Shown here: piece after piece, positions 7,621 through 64,000 of the stretch
Layout of the letters: every line of letters starts with the position of its first letter
Position numbering within the stretch: position 1 is the first letter of the stretch
IMG/VR virus record: IMGVR_UViG_3300020187_001966
Source: a virus
Taxonomy: Duplodnaviria; Caudoviricetes
Length of the DNA: 64,000 bases
Direction: 5' to 3' (one strand)
Position numbers and translations under genes: made by a program
The notes under the pieces: generated by a model
What the model saw: the letters and a program-made list of their open reading frames with translations, nothing else
The model's database searches: none
Told to the model about the DNA's origin: nothing

Positions 7621-8055
7621 ATGCAATGGAAATACAATGGTAATCTTGTTGAAGAGATAGCCGACCAATATATTGGATTTGTATACATCATTACTAATCT
7701 GACTAACAACAAAAAATATATAGGCAAAAAATTAGCCAAGTTTAAAAAAACTAGGCCACCCCTTAAAGGCAAAAAACGTAAAAGAAAATCACTAGTGGAA
7801 AGCGACTGGCAGACTTACTGGGGATCTTCAGAACACTTATTGGCAGATGTAGCTGAATTAGGCACTGAAAACTTTAGTAGAGAAATTTTATATTTCTGTA
7901 CTACACGTGGCGAACTTTCCTACCGTGAGGCAAAAGAACAATTCGACAGAGAAGTTTTACTTACTGACGAATACTATAACGGCATCATAAATGTCCGCAT
8001 TGGCGGATCTCAGGCTCTTAAAGAATCTCTAAAAAATAACATACCCCCTCTATAA
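7621..8055 (+). CDS. GIY-YIG family nuclease (catalytic domain only, 144 aa)
   Basis: GFVYIITNLTNNKKYIGKK, YWGSS, E..EQF and YYNGII. Confidence 0.8.
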   Translation: MQWKYNGNLVEEIADQYIGFVYIITNLTNNKKYIGKKLAKFKKTRPPLKGKKRKRKSLVESDWQTYWGSSEHLLADVAELGTENFSREILYFCTTRGELSYREAKEQFDREVLLTDEYYNGIINVRIGGSQALKESLKNNIPPL

Positions 8056-8059
8056 AAAG

Positions 8060-8480
8060 CATTGAGGAGTCGCCATTGATTTGGTTAGACAACGGAACTT
8101 GCTGGGGGACACAAACCAAATGAGTGGGCTCTACTGCGCCATTGTAACCCACGAGTATTTCCAAGTTAGTAGCCTTTATTGCAACTTGGTAGCTTGCGTT
8201 GAAAGCAGCATGTAAAGGGGTACAGCATAACCGCCTCTGCTAGTTTACTAGTTTTGCTATAAGGGTGTACAAGGTGACTGGTAATATCAGACTCTTTTGT
8301 CGTGCTTGGCCTAAATCAGGCTAAGTGCGACTTTAGATCATGGTAATGATCAATAATATATATATCATTATGATATATGATATAATATGATATTCGAATG
8401 TATTGAATGAAATGATTCAATCGAACGATAGTGAAGATTGATGATGTCGTAAGACATCAAGTAATGATAAAACTTACTTA
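8060..8480 (+). ncRNA. Candidate structured non-coding RNA or origin-like region
   Basis: No credible ORF. Multiple stems, e.g. a 14-bp hairpin at 8299-8331 with three G-U pairs and TGATGTC-GTAA-GACATCA at 8442-8459. Confidence 0.45.
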
Positions 8481-8501
8481 GATATAAATGAACACTTCAG
8501 A

Positions 8502-8747
8502 TTAAAATGTCTTCTTACCTGATGCAGCGTCTATTGCTTCTGATTCTTTACGATTCTTCTCTGAGTATGACGCAACAATTTCAGTTGCTTGGTATATTGG
8601 CATTTGATATAATTCTTTTACTGAAAATGCGCCTCCAGTATACAGTACAATATCATATACTTGTTTTCGTAGATCTTTGTTATTTTCATTCATCTCATCA
8701 ACTAAGGCTTGACTATTAGTCGGATTAGCTCTTAGTTGTTGGTGAAA
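8502..8747 (-). CDS. C-terminal extension of the tail/baseplate assembly chaperone (probable -1 frameshift segment, T-like ORF)
   Basis: Frame is open from 8759 to 8502 and is the -1 frame of 8732..9565. The ATG at 8693 has no good SD. Confidence 0.6.
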   Translation of the reverse strand, partial: FHQQLRANPTNSQALVDEMNENNKDLRKQVYDIVLYTGGAFSVKELYQMPIYQATEIVASYSEKNRKESEAIDAASGKKTF

Positions 8748-17368: not shown

Positions 17369-17394
17369 TAGCAATTTTAGTTGATAAAATAAAG

Positions 17395-17420
17395 ATAGGC
17401 GCTACGGCGCCTATTTTTTT
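17395..17420 (+). terminator. Intrinsic terminator after the major capsid gene
   Basis: ATAGGCGC-TACG-GCGCCTAT followed by a T run. Confidence 0.9.
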
Positions 17421-17441
17421 GACTTTTTTTTTAAAAAAGTG

Positions 17442-17470
17442 TTGACATTGGTGTCTACATATGCTATATT
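17442..17470 (+). promoter_or_regulatory. Sigma70-type promoter of the RNA island
   Basis: TTGACA, 17 nt, TATATT with TG-n extension. Confidence 0.8.
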
Positions 17471-17499
17471 ATATACATAGCTTGGGAGATATCCCAGAG

Positions 17500-17683
17500 T
17501 TAGATAGTGCAAGGAATGGCGGTCCGTAGAGGTCGTAACTTGGTTCATAGCTGTAGTGGCAATGCAAGAGCGTAGAGATACGAAGTTGTATTTTTAGACA
17601 TAACTGTTTAATATGAAGTTCCCGGATTTGAGCGTGGCTCTACACAAGGGTTGTTGGTATTCACAGAGTCCAACCTATCACTT
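17500..17683 (+). ncRNA. Structured ncRNA, manA RNA motif-like
   Basis: ORF-free and downstream of a promoter. Closing stem GATAG(17503)/CTATC(17675). The 5' GTGCAAGGAA...GAG...AACTTG and 3' AGTCC.ACCTAT pattern resembles the manA motif as I recall it; not computed. Confidence 0.5.
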
Positions 17684-17685
17684 TA

Positions 17686-17693
17686 TATAAATA
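17686..17693 (+). promoter_or_regulatory. Late promoter TATAAATA
   Basis: Exact consensus upstream of the 19-codon ORF. Confidence 0.55.
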
Positions 17694-17720
17694 ATAACGT
17701 AAGAAATAAGGAATTTTAAC

Positions 17721-17780
17721 ATGTCAAAAACTACAGTACATATTACTTACTGGCCACCATGCGAATGGGGAATGTTTTGA
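17721..17780 (+). CDS. 19-aa small ORF MSKTTVHITYWPPCEWGMF
   Basis: TAAGGA SD 8 nt upstream of the ATG; followed by a terminator. Confidence 0.5.
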   Translation: MSKTTVHITYWPPCEWGMF

Positions 17781-17807
17781 TGTGACTTTTTAAAAGTTAT
17801 TTTATAC

Positions 17808-17842
17808 AAGCCCTTAGCATTAATTTGTTGGGGGCTTTTTTT
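17808..17842 (+). terminator. Intrinsic terminator after the small ORF
   Basis: AAGCCCTTAGCA-loop-TGTTGGGGGCTT followed by a T run. Confidence 0.7.
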
Positions 17843-17845
17843 ATG

Positions 17846-17917
17846 AACACACTATGTCCTACTGCAATAGGAAGCGTTGCAGCGCATAGATCCCGAAAGG
17901 GTCGAAGTTAGTGTGTT
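17846..17917 (+). ncRNA. Compact multi-stem RNA element with complementary loops
   Basis: AACACAC/GTGTGTT closing stem, TCCTA-CTGCAA-TAGGA hairpin, downstream TTGCAG complementary to that loop, and CCC-GAAA-GGG hairpin. Confidence 0.5.
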
Positions 17918-17928
17918 TTTAAAAAAAT

Positions 17929-18002
17929 GAGGGTGTAGTGAAATGGTATCACGCTGGTCTCCAAAACCAGAAGCAGGAGTTCGATTCTCCTCACCTTTGC
18001 CA
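17929..18002 (+). tRNA. trnW: tRNA-Trp (CCA)
   Basis: Cloverleaf with anticodon arm CTGGT-CTCCAAA-ACCAG, T arm AGGAG-TTCGATT-CTCCT, and encoded CCA end. Confidence 0.93.
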
Positions 18003-18008
18003 AATAAT

Positions 18009-18085
18009 TCTACCTTAGCTCAGTAGGTTAGAGCGCCTGATTGTGGATCAGGAGGTCTCTGGTTCGATTCCAGAAGGTAGGACCA
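18009..18085 (+). tRNA. trnH: tRNA-His (GTG), no G-1, discriminator A73
   Basis: Anticodon arm CCTGA-TTGTGGA-TCAGG, T arm TCTGG-TTCGATT-CCAGA, acceptor TCTACCT/AGGTAGG, then A-CCA. Confidence 0.93.
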
Positions 18086-59284: not shown

Positions 59285-59286
59285 AG

Positions 59287-59294
59287 TATAAATA
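59287..59294 (+). promoter_or_regulatory. Late promoter TATAAATA
   Basis: Exact consensus upstream of the last fibre gene. Confidence 0.65.
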
Positions 59295-59322
59295 TACATA
59301 AGCAATCTTTAAGGATATACGT

Positions 59323-62300
59323 ATGGCATTAAGTAAAGGTTTTGAACTCGCAAAATTAGGCAGTGGACTAGATGTAAACCAATCAACAGGCGAAGTAGTA
59401 GCTATTTCCATGGATACAGATGTTGTATCCGAAGGAACTACTAATATATATTTCACAGACGCAAGAGTAGACAATAGGGTAGCTAGTTTATTAGCTGGAG
59501 GCACAACAGGTAATATTGTTACAACTGGCTACATAGCTGGCCCAGCAACATTTACAATTGATCCAGCAGGTGTTGGAGATAACACAGGTACAGTTGTTAT
59601 AGCAGGTAATTTACAAGTAGATGGTACACAAACAACAATTAATAGTACAACACTTGATGTTGATGATTTAAATATTACAGTAGCAAGTGGTGCCGCTAAT
59701 GGCGCAGCCGCTAATGGCGCTGGACTAACAGTTGACGGTGCTGGTGCTAACATTACGTATACACATGCCACAACTAGTTGGGACTTTAATAAAGATATAA
59801 ACGTAACAGGTACTACAACAACCGATCAATACTTATATGTTAATAGCCCTAACGGAACACAGCTTCAGCTACGTTCAGAAGATGCATATACTACTTTAGG
59901 TGTTGGAAATAGAAATCTTAATATTACTGCTAATAGAACTATATTTTTAGATGATGCTTTTGCAGAAGTAATGAGAATTAATGATGATGGTAATGTTGGT
60001 ATTGGCACAACCACCCCTACTAGGATGTTGGAAGTGTACAACACCAGTTCTAGTATGCTTGCACAATTCAAAAGCGGCTCTGGTGACGATGCGTTTATTT
60101 GTTTTGCAAATAATACATCTACTGCTGATGGAGTAAGAGTTGGGTCTAAAGGTAATGACTTAGTATTATCTACATTATTTACTCCGAGGGTTACAGTTAA
60201 ATACGCTGGCAATGTGGGTATTGGGACAGATGCACCTGCGAGTGCTCTACATGTTAGAGGTACAGCATCAACAGTAGGAGCTACTCGTTCTGTAGTTACT
60301 CTTACAGATGATACTGCGATGGGAATAAATGTTGGTAGTGGTGTTGCGTTTAGAGGGTTATATACTTCAGCAGGTCTAGAAGCTAATTATGGTGGAATTT
60401 TTGCTGGTAAATCAAATGCAAACTCTGGTAACGCAAATGGATATCTATCTTTATCATACTCTGCTAGTGGTACATTAACCGAAGGTATTCGTATTAGTGA
60501 AACTGGTAAAGTTGGTATTGGTGACTCCACACCAACTGCAAATGGATTAACTGTTTTTAGTTCAGTTACAGGAGCGTCAAGACTAAATTTGCATATTGGC
60601 GGCAGTGGTACTGTGCCAAACTCAGGCAGTTATAATACAATATCAAACAACCAGCACGCTGATATATTAATTTCGTCTAACGCTTATATAAACGGTAACG
60701 GGAATCCTGTTATAATATCTAATCATGCTAATATGGGTGGAACAGGTATAAAAATTTCTGGTGCAAATGGATCACATGATATTAAATTTTACACTTCGAA
60801 TGCAGCTAACTTTGTAAGAGGAACTGAACTAACAAATACAGAACGGATGACCATTAGTAAGTACGGTAACGTTGGTATTGGGACATCTACATTTGGTGTA
60901 AATGGTAAGTTGCAAGTTGCTGGAGGTATAGGGTTAACTGGTAATTCAGAAATTCGTCAAAGTACTAACAGTGACGGTAACACTTTAAGATTTCTAGGTA
61001 CCCAATTTGTTGCAGGTGCTGCTAACTCTCATAGCTATAGTTATACTGGCGGTGCACTTATAGCAGCTAGGGCATCGGCCCACAACGCACTTTTGTTTGA
61101 TGTAGGTACATCTGGCACATCAGGTCATAAGTTAAAAGTATTAAATGATAGTAGTGGTGTTGGTGGTTCTTTGCAATATCTTCATGGTAGTGATACGAGG
61201 TTTATTGTTAAAAGTTCAACAGGCAACGTTGGTATTGGTACAGCTACACCTAGCACGAAACTAGATATTTCAACATCTGGTGCTGATGGTATTACTTTAA
61301 ATGCAGATACTGTTACTTCAACAGCTTCTAATAGATTATTCTTTAATAACGGAACTGCAGGAAAAGCTGTTGGTTTATACAACTCATTTAATGCATTAAG
61401 ATTTACAGTTCTAGCTACACCTGGAACAAGTACAGGTACTGAAAAAATGCGGCTTACCGAAGCTGGATTTCTAAGTCTTGGTGGTCATGCTCCAGCAACA
61501 ATATTAGATATTGCCAACGTGGGTGGTGCTCACGGACTTGCTCTAAATGCAGATGCAAACAATGCCACACTTTCTAGTAGATTATTCCTTAATAATGGAA
61601 CAGCTGGTAAAGCAATTTCTATAATGAATAATGGAAATAATCTTTCTATATCAACTGCTGCTACACCAGGATCAGGTTCTGGGTCTGAAAAAGTTAGAAT
61701 ATTAGAAAATGGTAATGTTGGTATTGGTACAACTAACCCTATAATGGTTGGCGGAGGTACGGGGTTAGTCATAAACGGCGGCGCTAATCAGGCTCGTTTT
61801 GCGTTGAGGAATGATGCTACAGGTGATGGCTCAGGTGCTGGATTTCACCTTGCTGTTACTAGTGGTAGTGGCTCTAACGGAGGCCAAGCAATTTTTGAGC
61901 AACGTCAAAACAATATAATAGCTTTTAATCTATATGGCTCAGAAGCTATGCGCATCTTACCATCAGGTAATGTTGGTATTGGGACGACTTCGCCTAGTCA
62001 AAAACTTGATGTAGCTGGTAACATAGCACTATCAGGCACAGTAGATGGTGTAGATATAGCCGCAAGAGACGGCGTACTTACAAGCACAACAACAACAGCA
62101 AATGCGGCTTTACCAAAAGCTGGTGGCACTATAACAGGTGATGTATCTTTTACTAATGGTAATAAAGCTGTATTTGGAGGTACTGGCAACGGTGAACTAG
62201 AGATATACGCTCATGCTACAAACAATAATGTTTACATATCTGAAAACGCCGCCGGTAACCTTAATTTAGGCGCAGATAATTTCAACATATACACAAATGC

Positions 62301-64000
62301 GTTTACAAAGCAAGTAGCATCATTTACAGCTGGAAGTGCTAAACTATTAAATGACGGTAATGAGAAACTAGCCACAACAGCTACAGGTATAGATGTAACA
62401 GGTAATATAACTGTATCAGGCTACATAGCTGGCCCAGCAGTATTAACTATTGATCCAGCAGGTGTTGGCGATAATACAGGTAAGGTTGTTATCGCAGGTG
62501 ACTTACAAATAGATGGTACAACTACAACAATTAACAGTACAACACTAACAGTAGATGATTTAAATATCACACTTGCCAGTGGCGCCGCTGACAGCGCAGC
62601 CGCTAATGGAGCTGGTATTACTGTAGATGGAGCTAACGCTACTATCACATATGACGGCACAAATGACGAGTGGGACTTTAATAAAGACGTAAACGTAACA
62701 GGTAACATAGCACTATCAGGCACAGTAGATGGTGTAGACATAGCCGCAAGAGACGGCGTACTTACAAGTACAACAACAACAGCCAATGCGGCTTTACCAA
62801 AAGCTGGTGGAGCCATAACAGGTGCTATCACAACTAACAGCACCTTTGACGGGCGTAACGTGTCCGTAGATGGAGACAAGCTAGATCTTATTGAAGCAGG
62901 CGCCACAGCAGACCAAACTGCTGCGCAACTTCTGACAGCCATCAAGACTGTTGATGGTACTGGTTCCGGATTAGATGCTGATTTGCTGGATGGGCAGCAG
63001 GGTTCTTATTACTACAGTTCAGGTAATCCACCGCCTTTAACTGCTGACCCCACTCTAACATTAACTGGCGATGCCACTGGCTCAGCTACATTTACTAACC
63101 TTGGTAATGCTACACTGACCGTTGCTATTGCTGATGATAGTCATAATCACACCTTGGCAAACATAGACCAGGTTACTATTAATAACACTAATGACTTAGA
63201 CACCTACAATACCAGAGGACTATACAACTGGAGTAGCAGCAATCCTGCCAACAGCCCTTATGCTTACGGGTCTATGTTAGTACTACCAGACGGAAGCCAA
63301 TCGCAACAGCTATTACAAACATATGGTGGCACAGCTAACACAGTAAGTCTTTATGGCAGACGTAAAACAAGCGGCACTTGGGATACAACTTGGACACAGT
63401 ATTTTAGTGATCATTACCACCCCAACGCTGATACCCTAACAACAGCTAGAAATATTAACGGTGTAGCATTTGACGGGTCTATTGACATTACTGTAGCAGA
63501 CGCTACTAAGCTACCACTAGCTGGCGGCACTTTAACTGGTGGCCTTACGATTAACGAGAATGGCGACAGTCTTCATTTACGAAATACAACCAATGGTGGC
63601 AGTGTAGGTGTTTCTTTCAGCTCAAACGTCCCTGCTAGTCAAATTGGTCATTTGAGATTTTCACATTCAGATACAGTGACATACGGCTCTGGTGCAGCGT
63701 TTGTCTTAGGTAGTACCGAAGCAACTACAACTATCCTCGCTGATGGTAAGCTGATGTTTGATGAGGGCATCTATTCTAAACCAGCAACAGGTACAGGCGC
63801 TGGTACTAGAAAAGATGCTAACTGGGATACAGCTTATACAACAGCCAATACAGCTAATACAACAGCCAACGCCGCTTTACCTAAAGCTGGCGGTACTATG
63901 ACTGGTCCGCTAACCATTGATACAGACAACAACGCCAACGGTGGTCTTCGTCTTCTTGTAAACCAAACGAACCCTGAGCAAGACTTCTACTTTGCTCAAG
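59323..64000 (+). CDS. Very long tail-fibre-like protein, runs off the right edge (partial, more than 1550 aa)
   Basis: ATG 59323 (MALSKGFELAKLG...) with TAAGGA SD. Frame spot-checked open at 62401 (GNITVSGYIAGPAVL) and 63961 (NQTNPEQDFYFAQ); GNVGIGT repeats. Confidence 0.75.
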   Translation, partial: MALSKGFELAKLGSGLDVNQSTGEVVAISMDTDVVSEGTTNIYFTDARVDNRVASLLAGGTTGNIVTTGYIAGPATFTIDPAGVGDNTGTVVIAGNLQVDGTQTTINSTTLDVDDLNITVASGAANGAAANGAGLTVDGAGANITYTHATTSWDFNKDINVTGTTTTDQYLYVNSPNGTQLQLRSEDAYTTLGVGNRNLNITANRTIFLDDAFAEVMRINDDGNVGIGTTTPTRMLEVYNTSSSMLAQFKSGSGDDAFICFANNTSTADGVRVGSKGNDLVLSTLFTPRVTVKYAGNVGIGTDAPASALHVRGTASTVGATRSVVTLTDDTAMGINVGSGVAFRGLYTSAGLEANYGGIFAGKSNANSGNANGYLSLSYSASGTLTEGIRISETGKVGIGDSTPTANGLTVFSSVTGASRLNLHIGGSGTVPNSGSYNTISNNQHADILISSNAYINGNGNPVIISNHANMGGTGIKISGANGSHDIKFYTSNAANFVRGTELTNTERMTISKYGNVGIGTSTFGVNGKLQVAGGIGLTGNSEIRQSTNSDGNTLRFLGTQFVAGAANSHSYSYTGGALIAARASAHNALLFDVGTSGTSGHKLKVLNDSSGVGGSLQYLHGSDTRFIVKSSTGNVGIGTATPSTKLDISTSGADGITLNADTVTSTASNRLFFNNGTAGKAVGLYNSFNALRFTVLATPGTSTGTEKMRLTEAGFLSLGGHAPATILDIANVGGAHGLALNADANNATLSSRLFLNNGTAGKAISIMNNGNNLSISTAATPGSGSGSEKVRILENGNVGIGTTNPIMVGGGTGLVINGGANQARFALRNDATGDGSGAGFHLAVTSGSGSNGGQAIFEQRQNNIIAFNLYGSEAMRILPSGNVGIGTTSPSQKLDVAGNIALSGTVDGVDIAARDGVLTSTTTTANAALPKAGGTITGDVSFTNGNKAVFGGTGNGELEIYAHATNNNVYISENAAGNLNLGADNFNIYTNAFTKQVASFTAGSAKLLNDGNEKLATTATGIDVTGNITVSGYIAGPAVLTIDPAGVGDNTGKVVIAGDLQIDGTTTTINSTTLTVDDLNITLASGAADSAAANGAGITVDGANATITYDGTNDEWDFNKDVNVTGNIALSGTVDGVDIAARDGVLTSTTTTANAALPKAGGAITGAITTNSTFDGRNVSVDGDKLDLIEAGATADQTAAQLLTAIKTVDGTGSGLDADLLDGQQGSYYYSSGNPPPLTADPTLTLTGDATGSATFTNLGNATLTVAIADDSHNHTLANIDQVTINNTNDLDTYNTRGLYNWSSSNPANSPYAYGSMLVLPDGSQSQQLLQTYGGTANTVSLYGRRKTSGTWDTTWTQYFSDHYHPNADTLTTARNINGVAFDGSIDITVADATKLPLAGGTLTGGLTINENGDSLHLRNTTNGGSVGVSFSSNVPASQIGHLRFSHSDTVTYGSGAAFVLGSTEATTTILADGKLMFDEGIYSKPATGTGAGTRKDANWDTAYTTANTANTTANAALPKAGGTMTGPLTIDTDNNANGGLRLLVNQTNPEQDFYFAQ

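Follow-up and report, generated by a model that had tools for sequence, protein, structure and literature searches.

Replication from a folded transcript has been described for plasmid ColE1, in which the persistent hybrid made by RNA II depends on the fold of the RNA and on an RNA stretch that pairs with the template (available text of PMC5043065 and PMC4412123); the pairing joins a stretch of rG to a stretch of dC in the template (same portion of PMC4412123). That portion also describes the oriF and oriG origins of phage T4 as a promoter combined with a DNA unwinding element. The non-coding phage element analyzed here resembles RNA II in that a folded transcript of several hundred nucleotides would lie ahead of the start site, a segment of the RNA matches the template strand further on, and an RNase H gene stands beside the copy in phage Phosso. 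It differs in that we found no sequence similarity to RNA II and no antisense RNA I, in its one to four copies per phage genome, and in having a pseudoknot, a kissing helix, an AT tract and a variable 7-nt repeat that replaces the G stretch. The likeness to oriF and oriG lies in a T4-related phage, several dispersed sites and a transcript that enters an AT-rich element, although the sequences are unrelated. T4 origins are not known to depend on an elaborate conserved RNA structure, on paired repeats or on DNA hairpins with GNA loops. As in the OMEGA systems (IscB-omegaRNA, TnpB-reRNA), a nuclease gene adjoins a structured RNA, and as with GOLLD, ROOL and OLE, an ornate RNA is borne by a phage; unlike in these systems, there is no obligate pairing, transposon end or Rfam match, no variable guide is seen in the alignments, and the RNA is of low abundance. 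The best-supported reading, on the basis of anatomy and distribution, is that the element is a cis-acting, transcript-primed (R-loop) replication origin of T4-related jumbo phages, a proposal to which we give an even chance of being correct.

Setting and fold of the non-coding RNA

The window, the whole 64,000-nt stretch of DNA that was analyzed, is part of a T4-related jumbo phage according to its gene content and profile matches, and the RNA and DNA sequencing runs that contain its sequence are marine. The gene order is late sigma factor, gp47-like and gp46-like genes, HAD hydrolase, nuclease and non-coding gap, followed 3' of the gap by a baseplate hub gene on the opposite strand and then by portal and capsid genes. 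The cultured phages nearest to the hub protein are PA5oct, Atu_ph07 and the CBB/GAP32-like groups, at 24-30% identity. An earlier note on this DNA had described the flank of the nuclease gene as free of ORFs, and 8056-8501 indeed lacks any ORF of at least 50 aa. Its description of the flank as GC-rich holds for 8060-8348 (45% GC versus 39.5% for the window) and fails for 8349-8424, which is 82% AT and is the AT-rich tract that the note had also seen. The features of the locus are as follows.

7621-8055, + strand: stand-alone GIY-YIG nuclease gene (PF19835, phrog_447; fold match; slot exchange with PF24608 and endonuclease VII)
8059-8347, + strand: structured non-coding RNA (fold, conservation), with an uncertain 5' end and a putative 3' end at the second repeat
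8124-8152, + strand: hairpin a, with a conserved GGCTC/AAC internal loop (top covarying pairs)
8161-8189, + strand: hairpin b, whose loop (8173-8179) forms a pseudoknot with 8259-8265; its outer stem is poorly aligned (38.5%)
8194-8238, + strand: hairpins e (8194-8208) and c (8216-8238), with a loop-loop helix between them (8198-8201/8228-8231)
8279-8285, + strand: direct repeat copy 1, TGGTAAT (repeat analysis, mutual information)
8299-8331, + strand: terminal 14-bp hairpin between the repeats (folding, mutual information)
8341-8347, + strand: direct repeat copy 2, TGGTAAT, directly 5' of the AT tract (repeat analysis, mutual information)
8349-8424, no strand assigned: AT-rich tract (82% AT), candidate DNA unwinding element
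8417-8459, + strand: DNA-type hairpins (pattern search), cGATAg with tandem GA mismatches at 8417-8441 and cGTAAg at 8442-8459

The + strand of 8056-8345 folds better than its shuffles (z -2.48; 3 of 200 shuffles were as good), and the - strand of the same segment folds no better than shuffles (z -0.62). The stems listed in the earlier note are all present (TTGGTT 8081/AACCAA 8114, GTGGG 8124/CCCAC 8148, CCAAGTT 8161/AACTTGG 8183), as is the 14-bp hairpin with its three G-U pairs. The note had proposed testing whether the flank is conserved and covaries among homologues of the nuclease, with a lack of conservation counting as a refutation; the flank is conserved and does covary as an RNA structure. 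Three pattern scans gave at least 358 loci, of which 25 of 358 were set aside as non-members, leaving at least 333 true members in three sequence types. When the named structure was imposed on 26 type-1 sequences, 90.1% of pairs formed, compared to 77.6% in shuffles that keep relatedness and about 40% in slid controls, and 22 of the 35 pairs change on both sides; two helices were weak in this comparison (38.5% and 69% paired). Hairpin a was 100% paired, with changes on both sides in 6 of 7 pairs, and the pseudoknot was 94.6% paired, with changes on both sides in all 5 tested pairs. The kissing helix could form at least 4 bp in 59 of 77 sequences versus 31 (maximum 39) with shuffled partners. 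Mutual information over the 77 sequences ranked Watson-Crick pairs first, followed by three columns that covary by identity between the repeats.

Searches of Rfam 15, at the gathering threshold and at E-value thresholds, returned only tRNAs and sub-threshold AT-rich matches, with no family for this RNA; whatever its function, it is an ornate family that is missing from Rfam 15. Resemblances noted by eye to T-box, RNase P, group I/II intron, c-di-GMP and box C/D RNAs were set aside since none had an Rfam match and the pairing differs. BLASTN of the three RNA types against cultured phages gave nothing relevant. In many members, among them L018, L025, L029, L036 and L062, the core is preceded on its 5' side by additional conserved domains (100-350 nt), which exist in several versions that can replace one another.

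Elsewhere in the window we observed a phosphomannomutase-like HAD hydrolase gene (PF03332, 6856-7575) inserted between gp46 and the nuclease gene, and a GC-rich tandem duplication of about 51 nt near a baseplate wedge gene (893-1000), from which ORF 893-1105 carries the repeated peptide MTDLWRLAPACPAASGDA. Genes for tRNA-Trp(CCA) and tRNA-His(GTG) lie 3' of the major capsid gene at 17929-18085, and the roughly 560 nt 5' of this pair (17369-17928) hold no + strand ORF of 50 aa. A long tail-fibre-like open frame with internal repeats (59285-64000) runs off the end of the window.

The repeat pair, the AT tract and the DNA-type hairpins

An exact upstream copy of the 7-nt repeat was present in 97 of 99 type-2/3 loci among the matches listed, 49-68 nt away, and in these loci the identity ends sharply at both sides. 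Among the matches listed, repeat pairs were identical in 109 of 114 cases across 17 different 7-mers, rare ones included. The expression used to find copy 2 sets or constrains four of its seven positions, and 28 loci that did not match it were left out. Between -900 and +400, no complement of the repeat recurs at a constant position (7 of 99 in the best bin, versus 2.9; among the matches listed), and a search for a partner inside the RNA found none. This identity between copies that have no RNA partner may mean that copy 1 in the RNA pairs with the template strand at copy 2, or that the copies are twin protein sites. Two other explanations of the repeat were rejected: the reading as a sense codon plus stop, because variants without a stop exist, and helical periodicity, because the spacing is continuous over 49-68 nt.

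The 40 nt after the repeat average 75% AT across the family. In single-stranded DNA, loops of the cGNAg and cGNNAg type confer extra stability, as do tandem GA pairs. A + strand cGNAg/cGNNAg hairpin lies within 200 nt past the repeat in 154 of 182 non-redundant loci among the matches listed, so that the order of RNA, repeat pair, AT tract and DNA-type hairpins is fixed in these, and the same pattern was found in 1 of 146 upstream coding controls and in 11 of 182 inside the RNA. The commonest distal loops are GTA, GAA, GTTA and GTAA, closed by C-G, versus GAAA and GCAA inside the RNA. An extra minus-strand hairpin occurs 15-22 nt after the repeat, before the AT tract, in 46 of the 182 (among the matches listed). 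Within the window, the cGN(N)Ag-type pattern has 7 matches, 2 of them in the gap 3' of the nuclease gene. The GTAA-loop hairpin at 8442-8459, which had been counted among the stems of the structured region, is present but is of DNA type and lies outside the RNA fold, as does all of 8417-8459.

Copies in cultured phages and the candidate origin

Nine cultured genomes have a gap of 680-1500 bp without credible ORFs at or near the same junction; Atu_ph07 and Vibrio phage 2.275.O have no gap at the locus. In the Vibrio phage, a P-loop NTPase gene (L445:9080-10780) occupies the place where the gap would be. A covariance model built from type 3 alone, scanned over 260 kb in 23 sources, found two aquatic loci strongly, followed by the gaps of fHe-Yen9-04 (E 0.011), Deifobo (0.026), the window (0.027) and CBB (0.23), on the expected strand. 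Visual inspection of these gaps recovers the pseudoknot, hairpin c, a kissing helix whose changes are compensatory, and the repeat pair, AT tract and GNA hairpins. Covariance-model matches in PA5oct had E 0.029-0.046. Sequence HMMs do not cross between the type of the window and those of the cultured phages, an enterobacterial-type HMM found nothing in the window, PA5oct, G001 or G002, and a further model (R1), run without a positive control, found no copy in Atu_ph07, Phosso, 2.275.O, RAS14 or RsoM2USA. The window's RNA type and the cultured-phage element are likely homologous, with a weak link at the level of sequence.

A core pattern with no matches in the control identified 3 copies in CBB and 4 each in A4, XaC1, fHe-Yen9-04 and Munch, with 19 of 19 on one strand, and in the extra copies inspected by eye the core and its repeats and hairpins are accompanied by a TATAAT-type box. 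Three copies occur in PA5oct (12.8-13.7, 75.8-77.2 and 246.1-246.8 kb) and a second one near 166 kb in G002; only one was found in G001. Directly 3' of the element lie an RNase HI gene in Phosso (L496:6837-7223) and an adenine methyltransferase gene in fHe-Yen9-04 (L497:6071-6877). The tiny "hypothetical" CDS annotated in the 76-kb gap of PA5oct and Deifobo probably overlie the RNA element.

The 246-kb copy in PA5oct corresponds to the published ncRNA004, which the available parts of PMC7318152 describe only as a transcribed region, with no function given. Its share of phage reads in Table 1 of that paper is 0.08, 0.03 and 0.02% at early, middle and late times, compared to 1-5% for two other PA5oct ncRNAs in the same available parts. 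The annotated 3' end of ncRNA004 falls at the second repeat, directly before the AT tract. Within PA5oct it is paralogous to the copy that lies beside the resolvase gene (126 nt at 82.5%, E 7e-29), with a 32/32-nt match in the DNA hairpin, and both end at the repeat and AT tract. ncRNA004 is twice as long as the RNA of the window, to which it is linked by a weak covariance-model match and shared helices. For the window itself, contigs from RNA runs of three studies reach depth 3-4 over 8045-8265, 8063-8304 and 7927-8263, and 8310-8670 lies outside all of them; depth on window-identical pieces is 2-5, coverage of the operon as a whole is patchy, and some of the reads may stem from carried-over DNA, so expression of the RNA in the window's own phage is weakly indicated. 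No convincing dedicated promoter for the RNA was found within the window. Across ncRNA004, the cultured copies and the anatomy of the family, a transcript is directed into a downstream candidate unwinding element.

In the origin that we propose, the transcript would arise by read-through from the gp55-gp47-gp46-nuclease block in the window, or from its own sigma-70-type promoter in the cultured relatives, and would fold into the pseudoknotted RNA, with its end at copy 2 of the 7-nt repeat. Pairing of copy 1, within the fold, with the template strand at copy 2 would anchor a hybrid of RNA and DNA that persists at the border of the AT tract, where the RNA end could prime leading-strand synthesis. 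The displaced + strand may fold into the cGN(N)Ag hairpins, which could recruit a helicase loader or primase.

Several observations argue for this reading. The order of RNA, repeats, AT tract and DNA hairpins is fixed at the frequency given above against 1 of 146 in the control; the mirrored 7-mers without a fixed complement fit RNA-template pairing as in ColE1; the several dispersed copies in the five cultured phages are co-oriented; ncRNA004 is a rare transcript that peaks early and has its annotated 3' end at the second repeat; the neighbors include RNase HI and adenine methyltransferase; and T4 origins likewise join a promoter to a downstream unwinding element. Other observations count against it. 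The earlier note had raised the possibility of a transcript-primed origin with an AT-rich unwinding element, and the anatomy and distribution fit this proposal, but GC skew gives no independent replication signal: in PA5oct, G001 and G002 it follows the gene strand, and four-fold sites have no switch at the element, which multiple co-oriented origins or recombination-dependent replication could hide. In these three genomes, the main switch in gene direction is located about 5 kb from the resolvase-linked copy. The absence of a gap in Atu_ph07 and Vibrio 2.275.O, the five genomes without a match to the model run without a positive control, the syntenic loci L051 and L071, with no RNA within 1.5 kb, and the weak sequence homology between the window type and the cultured phages also count against an origin, as does a fold more ornate than T4 oriF needs.

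Such a fold could equally serve a trans-acting RNA, namely a protein scaffold, decoy or ribozyme with paralogous genes, in which the repeats would be twin protein-binding or processing sites and the downstream hairpins would only end transcription or bind a regulator. The pseudoknot and kissing helix, the paralogues with their own promoter-like boxes, and the discrete transcribed unit in PA5oct are all consistent with this explanation. We consider it a real but clearly less probable competitor, given the scarcity of ncRNA004 beside the two other PA5oct ncRNAs, the lack of any excess in marine RNA runs, and downstream hairpins without U-runs, whose loops are of DNA type and which stand at set distances on both strands.

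We also propose, more tentatively than for the origin itself, that a large group of T4-related jumbo phages, both those known from marine and freshwater metagenomes and cultured ones of Escherichia coli and Pseudomonas, initiate replication with a dedicated primer RNA that is conserved, pseudoknotted and encoded in one to four copies. This RNA would be template-anchored by a co-varying 7-nt repeat and maybe self-processing at its 3' end, which would make the element a folded-RNA class of origin not described for phages. The literature searched yielded no origins of RaK2/GAP32/PA5oct-like jumbo phages, and the accessible portions of the open-access literature, PMC6102473 included, and Rfam yielded no description of the RNA family, its copies or an origin role. 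Our analysis provides exact, repeated candidate origin sites in phages that can be grown on laboratory hosts; it supplies a model of the RNA structure whose long-range helices can be tested, and suggests what the hitherto unexplained ncRNA004 may do.

The neighboring nuclease and its exchange

The nuclease ends after its catalytic domain, as had been noted from the sequence: its 144 aa form a single domain of the PF19835 (SegE_GIY-YIG)/phrog_447 family, with a profile match of 119.9 bits (cut-off 25) that spans positions 1-123 of 123. The structure model (pLDDT 92) shows a compact GIY-YIG domain with a basic beta-hairpin, and its top fold matches are I-TevI (catalytic domain: Z 8.6, rmsd 2.6, 82 aligned), PD-T4-3, UvrC and T4 EndoII; a PDB sequence search found no match. 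The GIY-YIG core residues Y22, Y33, G35, E103 and N120 are invariant in 39 sequences. Without a DNA-binding tail, the protein is unlike a mobile Seg-type homing enzyme.

The gene beside the RNA is exchanged. We classified 199 loci, namely the type 1-3 members with 1.6 kb upstream among the matches listed (134 shorter ones were dropped, and redundant sequences were retained). The nuclease upstream of the RNA was GIY-YIG in 183 of 199 (adjacent in 177, with an inserted ORF between in 6) and PD-(D/E)XK of PF24608/phrog_244 in 16 of 199 (adjacent in 15, with an insert in 1) by a profile built from 7 of the loci that it then classified; no locus had both kinds and none had neither. RNAs that are 92-97% identical adjoin different nucleases; that of L137, beside a PD-(D/E)XK gene, is 97% identical to that of L109, beside a GIY-YIG gene. 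In cultured relatives the same slot, inverted, holds a PD-(D/E)XK gene in Deifobo and Phosso and endonuclease VII in CBB, XaC1 and A4. Genome-wide, the complete genome G001 has the GIY-YIG gene and neither of the other two families, G002 has PF24608 only, CBB has endonuclease VII and no PF19835, and phiM12 has GIY-YIG and a weak, sub-threshold endonuclease VII match; PF19835 is absent from five cultured relatives. The distribution of the nuclease is thus complementary to that of known resolvases, both in the 199 listed loci and in the genome-wide comparison. The nuclease is swappable, with the same RNA beside three unrelated nuclease folds or none.

The converse also occurs. Melnitz, whose nuclease is 71% identical, and phiM12 have no gap and no RNA 3' of the gene. 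The closest nuclease homologues gave 80 loci, 74 of which had at least 500 nt downstream; the RNA was detected in 59 of these flanks by profile and in L073 by covariance model, L077 shares the flank of L073, and the RNA was absent from 13 of the 74, 11 of which lacked gp46 or hub in the retrieved DNA.

The presence of a resolvase-type nuclease, never of both kinds, upstream of the RNA in all of the listed type 1-3 loci, together with the one copy per cultured genome that adjoins an endonuclease VII or PD-(D/E)XK gene, would also suit a DNA site for recombination, concatemer resolution or packaging initiation, with extruded hairpins cut by the neighboring enzyme. We regard such a site as improbable given that 12 of 22 type-4 (cultured-type) loci lie away from endonuclease VII and that GNRA loops of the RNA type, G-U pairs and folding on one strand only mark the proximal part. 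Less probable again is that the element is a selfish mobile RNA of an intron-like or retro-mobile kind, which would have colonized several intergenic sites and whose repeats would be tied to template switching: the copies are dispersed and the 7-nt repeat is sharply bounded, but no intron in Rfam matches, all copies are co-oriented, and one of them occupies the same gene junction even in phages that are very distant from each other. The earlier note had suggested that the RNA could supply the nuclease with its specificity, by analogy with OMEGA systems. A role for the RNA as guide or scaffold in such a ribonucleoprotein with the GIY-YIG enzyme we find very hard to credit, even with the gene adjacent and co-oriented in 177 of the 199 listed loci and an enzyme that lacks a recognition domain and has a basic beta-hairpin, since near-identical RNAs adjoin different nucleases, unrelated ORFs separate gene and RNA in 6 listed loci, the RNA is missing in 13 of 74 close nuclease loci, Melnitz and phiM12, five cultured relatives lack PF19835, alignments show no variable spacer at a fixed place, and no obligate, co-evolving pair was found.

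Alongside the candidate origin, the GIY-YIG protein would be a separate housekeeping nuclease of branched DNA, standing in the slot of endonuclease VII or a PD-(D/E)XK resolvase; judged by sequence and position, it is probably a substitute Holliday-junction/branched-DNA resolvase. The available text of PMC7824862 proposes Uri-domain proteins as alternative Holliday-junction resolvases in group 2 jumbo phages, and the exchange of resolvase genes in the same slot supports that proposal. The PF19835 proteins resemble them in their full-length family match, single copy, GIY-YIG fold and distribution complementary to other resolvases, and our data add the same-slot exchange with PF24608 and endonuclease VII. 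The PF19835/phrog_447 family has at least 7,978 homologues, many labelled "NAD synthetase" in phage records, and our findings offer a context-based function for this very large, mislabelled family. In Atu_ph07 (L442:4990-5490), a PD-(D/E)XK resolvase-like frame is unannotated, and small ORFs on other frames are annotated over it. Locus L251 has in the slot a 355-aa GIY-YIG protein with a long C-terminal tail and, upstream, another GIY-YIG-like ORF; these proteins are possibly homing-type variants of the family.
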